A stretch of DNA of 64,000 nt from Escherichia phage vB_Ec-M-J. Shown here piece by piece: positions 54,501 through 57,450 of the stretch. Numbering within the stretch: the stretch's first letter is position 1; each line of letters starts with the position of its first letter. The position numbers and the translations under genes are program-made. The notes under the pieces were generated by a model. The model was given only the letters and a program-made list of their open reading frames with translations. It did no database searches and was not told where the DNA came from. The stretch lies in sequence record OQ718158.1. One strand, written 5' to 3'.

Positions 54501-54911
54501 ATGATTGAAATGGAAGGAACTCTGGTGTATGATCCAGATCGTGGCACTATGAAAAAGAAGAAGGACTTCTGGTTAGTACTGCAACTTCCATTACAGTTGG
54601 TTCGATACTACCAGTACTTCATCAGAACTGACTTACATATTGATATTAAAGACCCACAATGGGGAGCACATGTCAGTATCGTTCGTGGTGAAGTGCCACC
54701 AAATCCAGAGTACTGGAAAAAGTACGATGGTATGAAAGTTAAGATTAAGTTCGAACCTTTCATCGAAGAAGTAAAAGACAATAAGAAACCTGGGTCATTC
54801 TTTATCATAGAGTTTGAAGATGATTTCATTGCACAAATTCGTGATGAACTTGGTTTAGCATCTAAATATTTCAAATATCACATCACCATTGGTAGAACAT
54901 ACTACGATTAA
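54501..54911 (+). CDS. putative 2H-phosphoesterase (LigT/cyclic-phosphodiesterase-like)
   Basis: Two H-x-[ST]-x motifs (AHVSIV and YHITIG) about 70 aa apart. Confidence 0.4.
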   Translation: MIEMEGTLVYDPDRGTMKKKKDFWLVLQLPLQLVRYYQYFIRTDLHIDIKDPQWGAHVSIVRGEVPPNPEYWKKYDGMKVKIKFEPFIEEVKDNKKPGSFFIIEFEDDFIAQIRDELGLASKYFKYHITIGRTYYD

Positions 54912-54934: not shown

Positions 54935-54962
54935 TTGATATAACTAAAAAGTATGCTATACT
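54935..54962 (+). promoter_or_regulatory. sigma70-like promoter
   Basis: TTGATA 54935-54940, 16-bp spacer, TGcTATACT 54954-54962. Confidence 0.45.
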
Positions 54963-55078
54963 ACTTAAATGTTCCAAAGAACAACTGAGTACTGTAGAAA
55001 GTCCAATGAGGCTTTTGCAAATGGCCTCTTTGCCCTCTTTGTGATTGCTCATTGTTAACAACCAACAAAGGAGGCGTT

Positions 55079-56005
55079 TTGAAAAAAGCGAAAAAAGCAC
55101 TGAAAACTAAAATTGCCGTAGGCGTATTAGTTTCATCAGCCCTATTCGCTGCGATTGGATTTTATGGTTTTTCTCAAAGTGATCGTGCATCATCATTAGA
55201 CGAAAGTCAGGTGCATAATTTAAAACCACAAGTTACGCAAATTCAAAAGCAGGAACTACCACAGGTATCAGTACCAAAAGCAGTTCCAAGCAGCGAGAAA
55301 CATTATACGGTTCAACCTGGAGATAGTTATTATTCTATTGCACAGAAATTTAAACCTAAAAATGTACAGATTGAAGATTATGTCATTTTGTTGAAGAACA
55401 TCAACTTAAATGCAACTCTTCATACTTCTCAGGGTATCTTTATCCCAACAAAAGAGGATTTGAAGAACGTATTGTTACCAGATGTGACTGTACTGTTTGA
55501 TTATAAAGATCCAGAAATTGTCAATCACATCAAAGAAGCTGAAGGTTCTATTGAATTTCAGTCCAAGAACAAACGACGTTTACTTGGTGGGAAAGTTGGA
55601 GTTCCTTTCCACAATTCTAAATTTCATCCCTATAAGGACATGAAAGGTAATTATACAATTGGTTATGGGCATTATTTGGGTAAGAAAGATTCTGATGCAA
55701 TGAAGTACAGAAACGGGATTACCAAAGCACAGGCCAACAAACTTTTAATGCAAGATATGAAAAGGACTTACGAGGACTTTACACTATTGATGCAGAAGAA
55801 AGATGCAGTTAATCTGACAAAAGAACAGCAGCGTATCCTGTTTGAAATGTCATACACAATGGGCGTTGATAAGTTGGCAACATTTAACAAACTATGGAAA
55901 AGTGTTAAAATGGATAACCCTAAGAAATTCAAGAAAGAAATCATGAATTCCTTGTGGTATCGCCAAGTTACAAACAGAGCGGATTTGTTGTTAAGCTCAC
56001 TCTAA
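55079..56005 (+). CDS. T4-type lysozyme (GH24) with N-terminal signal-anchor and LysM domain
   Basis: TTG start after AAAGGAGG RBS; hydrophobic anchor; LysM-like YTVQPGDSYYSIAQKF; C-terminal YTIGYGH..ITK.QA..LL.QD as in T4 lysozyme. Confidence 0.7.
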   Translation: MKKAKKALKTKIAVGVLVSSALFAAIGFYGFSQSDRASSLDESQVHNLKPQVTQIQKQELPQVSVPKAVPSSEKHYTVQPGDSYYSIAQKFKPKNVQIEDYVILLKNINLNATLHTSQGIFIPTKEDLKNVLLPDVTVLFDYKDPEIVNHIKEAEGSIEFQSKNKRRLLGGKVGVPFHNSKFHPYKDMKGNYTIGYGHYLGKKDSDAMKYRNGITKAQANKLLMQDMKRTYEDFTLLMQKKDAVNLTKEQQRILFEMSYTMGVDKLATFNKLWKSVKMDNPKKFKKEIMNSLWYRQVTNRADLLLSSL

Positions 56006-56020
56006 AAAGGTAGGTAAATT

Positions 56021-56353
56021 ATGCTAAATCTAGTTATCCAAGGTAATGTTGATATTACTCCAGCAATCAATGACGCAATTCATGCTGAAGCAAATGCACT
56101 AACGAAGTTTAGTGATTCTTCAGTACTGCATATTGGTGTTCATGTGAAGAAAGAGCATAAGAATCAATATTTCGTAACTTTAACATCAGGCGGTAAGAGT
56201 GTTACAGCCGATGATGCAGATTTATACAAAGCAATTGGTGATTCATTTGAAAAAATGGAAACTGTCTTAGGTAAAGACAAAAGCATCAAATTGCATCGCC
56301 GTAACCACCCCGAACATCCAGTTCAAGAAGACTTGACTGAAGACGAAGAGTAA
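56021..56353 (+). CDS. hpf: ribosome hibernation promoting factor (HPF/YfiA family)
   Basis: Collinear with E. coli HPF (MLNLVIQGNVDITPAINDAI...V.VKKEH...LYKAIGDSFEKME). Confidence 0.75.
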   Translation: MLNLVIQGNVDITPAINDAIHAEANALTKFSDSSVLHIGVHVKKEHKNQYFVTLTSGGKSVTADDADLYKAIGDSFEKMETVLGKDKSIKLHRRNHPEHPVQEDLTEDEE

Positions 56354-56362
56354 GATATAATA

Positions 56363-56392
56363 AAGGGACAGAGATTATTCTGTCCCTTTTCT
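56363..56392 (+). terminator. rho-independent terminator
   Basis: GGGACAGA-GATTAT-TCTGTCCC followed by TTTTCTT. Confidence 0.8.
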
Positions 56393-56407
56393 TATGGGGT
56401 TTTAATT

Positions 56408-56824
56408 ATGAATTATGTTTGGGTAGATGTAGTAAAATCTCTCGTATCAACACATGATGTTGATTTACCAGATAGTCTGGTATTTAACAGATGGTACTAT
56501 CCAAATCCAGAGGACTGTAACGTTGGAATTGGATTTTTTATTAATGATAAATCTAATTTGTTTGGATTAATTGAAGATGAGACAAAATCCAACCTTATAT
56601 TCTCGATTGAGTTGAATGCTGATCACATAAAATACTACACCAATAAAATGGACGAAGACGATGGAGATGTTATAATCCCAGCAGAAATAGACGAAGCTTC
56701 ATTTTTTCAGTTATCATTGATTTATGATCTATCTAACATTAATTATGATAATGTGAAAGACCTTTTTATATTGTACAATAAAATGTATAATTACTTTTTA
56801 AGACCTTTTTATATTGTACAATAA
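56408..56824 (+). CDS. hypothetical protein (3' end lies inside a 43-bp tandem duplication)
   Basis: Track ORF; stop codon falls in the second repeat copy. Confidence 0.5.
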   Translation: MNYVWVDVVKSLVSTHDVDLPDSLVFNRWYYPNPEDCNVGIGFFINDKSNLFGLIEDETKSNLIFSIELNADHIKYYTNKMDEDDGDVIIPAEIDEASFFQLSLIYDLSNINYDNVKDLFILYNKMYNYFLRPFYIVQ

Positions 56825-56860: not shown

Positions 56861-57046
56861 ATGGAATATACCATATGTGTAATTGTATGTATCATAGCCT
56901 TACTCGCAGGAGTTGGTGTGATGATTTACTGTGATGCGGAACCCAGTACTGAAGTAGGTACAACCATCACACTTAAACCTGGTGTTAAAATTAATGATAC
57001 CTATTGCTACAATCCAAACACAAACCGTTATGAGATTTGTTTATGA
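56861..57046 (+). CDS. small membrane protein
   Basis: N-terminal hydrophobic helix; AGAGGAA RBS. Confidence 0.45.
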   Translation: MEYTICVIVCIIALLAGVGVMIYCDAEPSTEVGTTITLKPGVKINDTYCYNPNTNRYEICL

Positions 57047-57450
57047 AAACATTCAACATTGTTCATATAATTGAACCGATTGCAGAACATATTAAAAACA
57101 TAAGTAAGAACGAGTCAGGTTTTTTCTTCAATTTAGACAAACTTCATCGCTATACCAATGTATCTAGTTTTAATCGTGCTAAGAGACTTTACATCCGTAT
57201 ACACAACCTATGGTACAGTGACGATACGTTGATGATAGATATCACGGTTGGTGAAGAAATAACATTAAGATATATTGACGATTTTAAATCAGATGATATT
57301 CGTGCTGGATCATTACCAATTGATGCTTCATATGAAGAATATCTGCAATACCAGTTCATTGATGACACATTTGGATTTGACTTTGAACTATATAATAGTA
57401 TAATGAACGTATACCATATATACGAAAGGAATTTGAATGGACATTCGTAA
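57037..57450 (+). CDS. hypothetical protein (paralog of 57437..57859)
   Basis: Shared C-terminal motif QFIDDTFGFDF vs MFIDDTFSIDY. Confidence 0.5.
   Translation: MFMKTFNIVHIIEPIAEHIKNISKNESGFFFNLDKLHRYTNVSSFNRAKRLYIRIHNLWYSDDTLMIDITVGEEITLRYIDDFKSDDIRAGSLPIDASYEEYLQYQFIDDTFGFDFELYNSIMNVYHIYERNLNGHS

Follow-up and report, generated by a model that had tools for sequence, protein, structure and literature searches.

A diverged S30AE (HPF/YfiA) family protein with a predicted RaiA-like C-terminal extension, encoded by Escherichia phage vB_Ec-M-J and its jumbo-phage relatives

We analysed a stretch of 64,000 nucleotides of Escherichia phage vB_Ec-M-J (sequence record OQ718158.1; one strand, 5' to 3'), here called the window. 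At the locus of interest, an open reading frame runs exactly from ATG to TAA and encodes a protein of 110 aa, with the strand and boundaries given in a preliminary description of the window. That description had also placed the ORF between a lysozyme gene and a terminator, and indeed the gene upstream encodes LysM and Phage_lysozyme domains, while a hairpin (56362-56389) with a T-rich tract follows downstream (Table 1). The ORF, which we call the S30AE gene after the family of its product, starts just 15 nt past the lysozyme stop codon, and co-transcription of the two genes is therefore likely. Annotated relatives have the start of the LysM-lysozyme gene at the equivalent of 55079, and this gene probably heads the transcription unit that includes the S30AE gene.

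Table 1. Features at the S30AE locus and in its surroundings (positions in the window)
Feature	Position	Strand	Basis
CDS, S30AE-family (HPF/RaiA) protein, 110 aa	56021..56353	+	ATG-to-TAA ORF, Pfam, model, dN/dS
Shine-Dalgarno-like AAAGGTAGG 5' of the S30AE ATG	56008..56016	+	sequence; invariant in four-way alignment
LysM + Phage_lysozyme gene, upstream neighbour	55052/55079-56005	+	Pfam, PHROGs, synteny
Intrinsic-terminator-like hairpin + T-rich tract	56362..56397	+	folding, kept in nine relatives
Sigma-70-like match TTGACT-17-TATAAT (11/12)	56333..56361	+	motif scan; hexamers in nine relatives
Candidate promoter TTGATA-16-TATACT, extended -10 TG, for the lysozyme/S30AE unit	54935..54962	+	motif scan, conservation
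Leader upstream of the lysozyme gene	54935-55078		conservation
2H-phosphoesterase-like protein	54501-54911		sub-threshold Pfam match
ORF downstream of the hairpin	56408-56824		
ORF, 137 aa, paralogue of the next	57037-57450		sequence comparison
ORF, 140 aa, paralogue of the preceding	57437-57859		sequence comparison
CCA-adding tRNA nucleotidyltransferase	57995-59110		PolyA_pol head and RNA-binding domains

Profile, fold and collinearity support the assignment of the 110-aa product to the S30AE (HPF/YfiA) family, of which it is a diverged member. The Pfam model Ribosomal_S30AE (PF02482) matches it with 41.1 bits against a gathering score of 23.7 (E = 3e-10) and aligns over model positions 5-84 of 88; a profile search had been named beforehand as the result that might refute HPF/YfiA membership, and with this match the membership stands. 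The collinearity with HPF/YfiA that had been claimed is likewise borne out by the Pfam alignment and by that to the NCBIfam HPF/YfiA equivalog TIGR00741, which extends over positions 2-96 of 102 and scores 33.1 bits, below the cut-off of 40.9. Against the HPF profile NF007780 the protein stays under threshold (19.1 against a cut-off of 125), and among PHROGs it belongs to the unnamed family phrog_34864, with a weak match to the S30EA phrog. All matches in a sequence search of the PDB were hibernation factors, the best being a 183-aa HPF (9t0z, E = 1.9e-8). An AlphaFold2 model, built on an alignment of 13 clade sequences, reached a mean pLDDT of 77.8 and adopted the canonical β-α-β-β-β-α topology (β1 2-8, α1 14-30, β2 36-46, β3 49-56, β4 59-65, α2 68-84). 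When this model was compared with the PDB by Foldseek, ranks 1-36 were all HPF, pY or RaiA structures, with target-normalised TM-scores of up to 0.76. Model and alignment place the domain core in residues 1-84, followed by a short extra helix (87-95) containing R93-R94 and by a disordered, acidic tail (96-110).

Is the gene a stable component of this phage lineage? The survey of related phages that had been suggested returned a homologue in 37 phage records, with a full-length ORF in about 34 and in distinct genera; synteny holds across Asteriusvirus, Erwinia phage Hallingskeid and the Munch / fENko-Kae01 group. Nei-Gojobori estimates over nine orthologues (34 pairs, dS up to 1.8) gave a median pairwise dN/dS of 0.24 for the S30AE gene, compared with 0.16 for the lysozyme gene and 0.40 for the downstream ORF; the S30AE gene is under purifying selection. 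The homologue of Klebsiella phage fENko-Kae01 was found by LC-MS/MS, with six spectra, in the retentate of a >300-kDa filter. The authors of that work caution that retention reflects either membership in some large complex or carry-over and, because many soluble enzymes were also retained, we read the detection as expression only. Homologues in this many records, a dN/dS of this size and the detection of one homologue by mass spectrometry show that the S30AE ORF is no accidental reading frame.

With Escherichia phage BF17 the region shares 98.6% identity, and with about 30 further jumbo coliphages of the 121Q/PBECO4 group (Asteriusvirus, genomes of 348-386 kb) it shares 80-97%. A block consisting of the LysM-lysozyme gene, the S30AE gene, several small ORFs and a gene for a CCA-adding enzyme recurs in 121Q, PBECO4, slurp01, Turkey3, Turkey5 and EJP2. 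Phage A4 and Erwinia phage Hallingskeid, which has a 46%-identical copy, show the same local order within the stretch fetched, the CCA-adding gene being unannotated or beyond that stretch. The Salmonella phages Munch, 7t3 and SE_PL and fENko-Kae01 encode a more distant version (34% identity, collinear from end to end), which occupies the same wider gene block and has an annotated terminator behind it. The S30AE gene belongs to the old, conserved gene stock of the Rak2-like jumbo phages of enterobacteria (roughly 350 kb).

Outside these genomes, a word-indexed search for homologues returned nothing beyond the phage clade itself, and an exhaustive profile search of 1.84 billion representatives gave 60 proteins at E ≤ 1e-3, of which five reached E ≤ 1e-10. 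The nearest metagenomic relatives lie on contigs of 78-351 kb. A scan of IMG/VR with the family alignment, which is pattern-based and too narrow for a census, recovered two loci, 121Q and one 366-kb contig. Given the few profile matches and the distance from the host paralogues, we regard the clade as isolated and not as a recent capture from the host. One of the profile matches, P0014, is a predicted protein of 1605 aa in which a 53-aa unit is repeated 29 times in tandem, nearly unchanged. Its match covers profile positions 45-82, and the protein has the look of an artefact of assembly or repeats rather than of a true relative.

Two irregularities among the relatives deserve mention. Truncated S30AE copies of 74 aa and shorter occur in four Salmonella phage records of the SD-* series, and we considered and rejected gene decay in the Salmonella Asteriusviruses as their origin. 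The truncations are clean deletions in DNA that is otherwise identical to 121Q, they share one right-hand boundary, and neighbouring genes including the lysozyme gene are fragmented too (e.g. SD-15_S21, SD-1_S14). For these reasons the deletions are probably assembly artefacts, and they were left out of the evidence. Between Turkey3 and the window (55079-56353), the synonymous divergence is 0.03 in the lysozyme gene and 0.18 in the S30AE gene, a pattern in the sequences that suggests a recombination boundary between the two genes relative to Turkey3.

The hairpin downstream of the S30AE gene has an 11-bp stem and a 6-nt loop and is followed by TTTTCTTAT; its folding energy is -19.7 kcal/mol, with a z of -4.0 against shuffled sequences. 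It occurs at the same spot in nine of nine relatives, and the stems of EJP2 and Hallingskeid differ yet pair. Three of the 11 stem pairs change on both sides, and 92% of the cells are paired compared with 33-70% when the partners are slid; as the sample is small, this covariation amounts to moderate support. Terminator features are also annotated in the UE-S1 and G17 records.

The sigma-70-like match TTGACT-17-TATAAT overlaps the last S30AE codons and abuts the foot of the hairpin, and its hexamers are present in all nine relatives. Judged by its motif, it is a candidate promoter of the downstream gene at 56408, and since a transcript from this site would start inside the 5' arm of the hairpin, it would escape termination. 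The -35 element coincides with the codons for L105-T106, so that conservation of the DLT motif could partly be due to a constraint at the DNA level, which is a caveat for reading the tail as a protein feature. The number of sigma-70-like sites in the region is what shuffled sequence would give (21 found, 21.3 expected). The candidate promoter of the lysozyme/S30AE unit is conserved in 121Q, PBECO4, A4 and Turkey5, and TGCTATACT does not stand out as a clear repeated promoter motif within the window.

This upstream candidate opens a leader in which the TTGATA-16-TGcTATACT site is accompanied by an invariant GTAGAAAGTCC and a GAGGCC/GGCCTC hairpin. The leader segment CCCTCTTTGT can pair with the lysozyme ribosome-binding site ACAAAGGAGG. 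Conservation of the leader extends to the same four phages and partly to EJP2, where the hairpin is kept with another stem sequence; the leader matches nothing in Rfam and has an unexceptional folding energy (z -0.5). The annotated small RNA RaiZ of E. coli derives from the 3' end of raiA together with the raiA terminator. An Rfam scan of the phage region found nothing.

Among the neighbouring genes, one encodes a 2H-phosphoesterase-like protein whose Pfam match is sub-threshold (23.8 against 27 bits), and another a CCA-adding tRNA nucleotidyltransferase with PolyA_pol head and RNA-binding domains. These RNA-metabolism genes lie in the same conserved block as the S30AE gene, which in relatives continues with NUDIX, glutaredoxin/thioredoxin and macro-domain genes. 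No tRNA genes were found within the window. The ORF directly downstream of the hairpin has no detectable relation to the ORFs of 137 and 140 aa, which adjoin with a slight overlap and are paralogues of each other (33% identity over 85 aa, E = 2e-8).

The gene is already catalogued, and the window adds no new kind of object. RefSeq still names the orthologues of 121Q (gp533) and PBECO4 'HPF/RaiA family ribosome-associated protein', although the TIGR00741 cut-off is not reached here. Other records use 'ribosome-associated inhibitor A', 'ribosome hibernation promoting factor' or 'sigma 54 modulation protein / S30EA', and in the genome paper of phage Sharanji the orthologue (79% identity) is grouped with factors that regulate translation. 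Among cultivated phages, Mizuno et al. 2019 (PMC6375957) found PF02482 proteins in the jumbo phage GAP32 of Cronobacter and in six coliphages of the rV5-like type, and proposed that a viral HPF may compete with its cellular homologues and thereby prevent the formation of ribosome dimers. In the same study, the HPF of rV5, so far the one phage HPF put to an experimental test, was expressed in E. coli but did not turn up in salt-washed 70S or 100S particles, and the 100S level stayed unchanged (PMC6375957). For experiments on jumbo-phage HPF/RaiA proteins, our search of the literature yielded nothing beyond annotations, the Mizuno study and the proteome of fENko-Kae01. In view of the public annotation and the published phage HPFs, we consider the finding already known and its novelty low.

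How does the window protein relate to these other phage copies? Surveys with tblastn found the family in at least three phage lineages, the rV5-like group, the Rak2-like jumbo phages and the Xanthomonas jumbo phage XaC1. The likeness to GAP32 rests on its published description as a jumbo phage (358,663 bp) with a 111-aa copy of similar length. The rV5-like group, which provides most of the 130 matching records, encodes proteins about 43% identical to E. coli HPF. Like the window protein, the 105-aa rV5-like copy of the Vequintavirinae is a PF02482 protein of a large enterobacterial myovirus, but the two are only 26% identical over 73 aa and the rV5 tail is glycine- and lysine-rich. By sequence, the rV5-type copy appears to be a separate, more recent capture, and the negative ribosome-association result belongs to a different lineage than the window protein.

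Another relative is the 'ribosome-associated inhibitor' of Munch and fENko-Kae01 (106 aa, E = 1e-13). Its C-terminus has the pattern ...KR... DLTExxE, as in the window protein, and its gene block resembles that of the window in the order of lysozyme gene, S30AE gene with terminator, and genes for a CCA-adding enzyme, a NUDIX protein, thioredoxin/glutaredoxin and a macro domain. The Munch type differs from the window copy in having retained R17 and K26 and in a Pfam score of 62 rather than 41 bits, and Munch has an extra gene and a terminator between the lysozyme and S30AE genes. We considered a functional link of the S30AE gene to the lysozyme gene and rejected it; because the two genes are separated in Munch, their adjacency in the window looks historical and not mechanistic.

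The contacts of the E. coli factors with the ribosome provide a way to judge what the phage protein could still bind. Contacts common to HPF and YfiA are made by K80, R83, K87, K91 and K89, where R83 is the single essential arginine and touches m4C1402; T53 contacts m2G966, K26 and Q29 lie near m3U1498, and the β2-β3 loop likewise touches the ribosome (10.1101/2025.10.07.680626). We mapped these positions in an alignment of 75 sequences, including 13 members of the phage clade and 54 cellular-type sequences. K80, K87 and K89 correspond to K78, K85 and K87 of the phage protein, all three invariant in the 13 clade members, so that three of the five α2 contacts (K80, R83, K87, K89, K91) are kept. 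T53 is T53 in the phage protein as well (11 of 13 members), and position 29, a glutamine in HPF and a lysine in RaiA, is an invariant K29 in the clade. R83, by contrast, is replaced by T81 (threonine in 11 of 13) and K91 by I89 (isoleucine or valine in the clade). In α1, R17 has become N17 (N, H or Q in the clade), K23 of HPF or R23 of RaiA has become E23 (E, G, D or S) and K26 has become A26 (A, T, V, S, C, H or Q); at these three columns a basic residue stands in 74-83% of the 54 cellular-type sequences and in none of the 13 clade members.

Overall, the phage protein keeps four of the nine conserved basic contact positions, whereas E. coli HPF has eight. The β2-β3 turn carries a motif of the clade's own, VHVKKEHKxQ, which is invariant in the clade and absent from the aligned cellular sequences. 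With a pI of 5.4 and a net charge of -7, to which the tail contributes -5, the protein as a whole is acidic. Munch-type relatives, which retain the two α1 residues named above, score 50-63 bits against Pfam as opposed to 41 for the Asteriusvirus copy, and by these sequence measures the latter appears to be the most derived jumbo-phage version. Binding to the ribosomal decoding cleft is a plausible activity and, from the residues retained, seems the most likely one; given the remodelled contact set, the affinity may be lower.

The subtype of the protein is what the present analysis adds: the sequence points to a single S30AE domain that is prolonged at the C-terminus in the manner of RaiA. The RaiA of E. 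coli (YfiA, protein Y) has 113 aa and the S30AE fold is common to both proteins. The RaiA subtype is recognised by an extension of about 20 residues with equivalents of R95-R96, and the phage protein indeed continues for about 20 residues past α2, as helix 87-95 and tail, with its doublet R93-R94 aligned to R95-R96 of RaiA, which make strong contacts to 16S rRNA and uS7 (preprint 10.1101/2025.10.07.680626). Both C-termini are acidic (DLTEDEE in the phage protein, VEEVEEE in RaiA). The equivalents of RaiA R17, R23 and K26 in α1 and of R83 in α2 are not basic in the phage protein, the HVKKEHKxQ hairpin is a feature of the clade and not of RaiA, and the overall identity is very low. Short HPF of E. 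coli (YhbH, 95 aa) ends at H95 just past α2 and, unlike the phage protein, is without extension; the phage protein shares with it the equivalents of K80, K87 and K89 as well as T53.

The preliminary description had called for an alignment with HPF and RaiA. RaiA is the only host paralogue aligned by BLASTP (27% identity over 81 aa), and the same search with the single phage sequence gave no alignment to E. coli HPF. The profile of the jumbo-phage clade matches both, RaiA with a probability of 97.4% over 96 columns (E = 1.2e-11) and HPF with 98.4% over 90 columns (E = 4.5e-15). Because the core scores better against HPF than against RaiA, we limit the label RaiA-like to the architecture.

In gamma-proteobacteria, the formation of 100S dimers requires RMF, with which E. 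coli HPF acts, and the host has an RMF. An RMF homologue was absent from the window and from 50,697 phage records. The short-HPF type, with about 95 aa ending past α2 and RMF as a partner, does not describe the phage protein, which has a RaiA-type extension of 20 residues and no phage RMF. Nor does the long-HPF type, with about 180-200 aa in total and a C-terminal dimerisation domain: no second Pfam domain was found within the 110 aa, and the tail is predicted to be disordered. YfiA has been described as antagonistic to HPF-driven 100S formation, and the RaiA (YfiA) tail is said, after Polikanov and co-workers in 2012, to overlap the RMF site. From its sequence, the phage protein would not be expected to form 100S dimers autonomously. 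Lacking a dimerisation domain and a phage RMF and having a RaiA-like tail, it should therefore give a negative result in a 100S assay, or reduce the 100S fraction.

We consider it somewhat more probable than not that the phage encodes a RaiA-like factor which would bind vacant host ribosomes and hold them as silent, protected 70S monomers. The protein, made during infection, would dock on the host 30S subunit, in its head-body cleft, where it would cover the A- and P-site tRNA and mRNA positions of vacant ribosomes. Docking would use the α2 lysines and the β-sheet, and the C-terminal extension would run along the subunit like the tail of E. coli RaiA. Idle ribosomes could then be kept as silent, nuclease-protected 70S monomers, as by RaiA, and would not be driven into 100S dimers. 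Protection of ribosomes against RNases by the hibernation factors of the host is reported in PMC7913689. The role proposed in the preliminary description, to shut down or protect host ribosomes, is plausible and, like the ribosome binding, the RaiA-like outcome and the benefit for the phage, is inferred from family membership. Several points speak against a RaiA-like reading: the basic residues of α1 and the equivalents of R83 and K91 are lost, the protein is acidic, TIGR00741 remains below its cut-off, and BLASTP does not align the protein to HPF. By analogy, the absence of the rV5 HPF from salt-washed ribosomes may count against it as well, and an indiscriminate blocker of the A and P sites would not by itself favour phage over host mRNAs.

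These same observations can be read differently. The protein might occupy the HPF/RaiA site weakly and displaceably, with its tail in the RMF region, and so keep host HPF, RaiA and RMF off the ribosome and prevent 100S formation, in which case the ribosomes of starved or stressed hosts would stay usable for phage translation. We hold this to be rather unlikely, although it would agree with the suggestion of Mizuno et al. that a viral HPF competes and prevents dimers (PMC6375957). The loss of R83 and of three α1 basic residues together with the retention of the α2 lysines is what a weakened but specific binding would look like, and an extension with an RR doublet, in a family whose YfiA member is described as antagonising HPF-driven 100S formation, would suit a competitor that has neither a dimerisation domain nor a phage RMF. 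However, whatever occupies the A/P-site cleft also blocks translation for as long as it stays there, the weak binding is deduced from sequence alone, and the invariant basic β2-β3 hairpin (HVKKEHK) could compensate for the lost contacts. A similarly doubtful reading takes the loss of contacts further and supposes that the S30AE domain was repurposed for another RNA or protein, such as a tRNA, a phage mRNA or an RNA-repair partner, and no longer targets the decoding cleft. The survival of four of the nine basic contact positions, where E. coli HPF has eight, the clade's own invariant VHVKKEHKxQ and the lowest Pfam score among the jumbo-phage copies (41 against 50-63 bits) would fit such a shift, as would the rV5 HPF that did not associate with ribosomes (PMC6375957) and the RNA-metabolism genes nearby, including those for the 2H-phosphoesterase-like protein and the CCA-adding enzyme. 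Against this, K78, K85, K87, T53 and R93-R94 are retained, all of which correspond to 16S rRNA or uS7 contacts in solved complexes, no result points to an alternative partner, and terminators and unrelated ORFs separate the neighbouring genes from the S30AE gene.

That the gene is a decaying remnant of a captured host gene, without current function, we regard as highly improbable. Its high divergence from host HPF and RaiA and the truncated copies in the four SD-* records could be taken in this sense, but the dN/dS of 0.24 over pairs with a dS of up to 1.8, the full-length ORF in about 34 records from distinct genera and the homologue seen as protein speak against it, and the SD-* truncations themselves look like assembly artefacts.

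In nature most hosts are starved, HPF, RMF and RaiA keep their ribosomes locked, and some defences bring translation to a stall. To our knowledge, the way in which phages handle the ribosome hibernation of their hosts is largely unexplored, and a viral member of the S30AE family could either impose or counteract this state. We speculate, and consider it improbable, that the protein evolved as an anti-hibernation decoy: a weakened RaiA-like factor that would sit on the HPF, RaiA and RMF sites in starved or defence-arrested cells, block both 100S formation and RNase attack, be readily displaced for phage translation and might even be delivered with the virion. As to a virion protein, the main text of the phAPEC6 structural-proteome study contains none of the terms 'ribosome', 'RaiA' and 'inhibitor A'. 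The sharper prediction that follows for the RaiA-like factor, and for its competing variant, is that of a RaiA-type protein which stabilises 70S ribosomes or competes for them through an altered contact surface and does not form 100S dimers. The lineage is old, conserved and distinct from that of the rV5 HPF behind the sole, negative experiment, and the function of phage HPF/RaiA homologues is a real question that can be approached in culturable coliphages.
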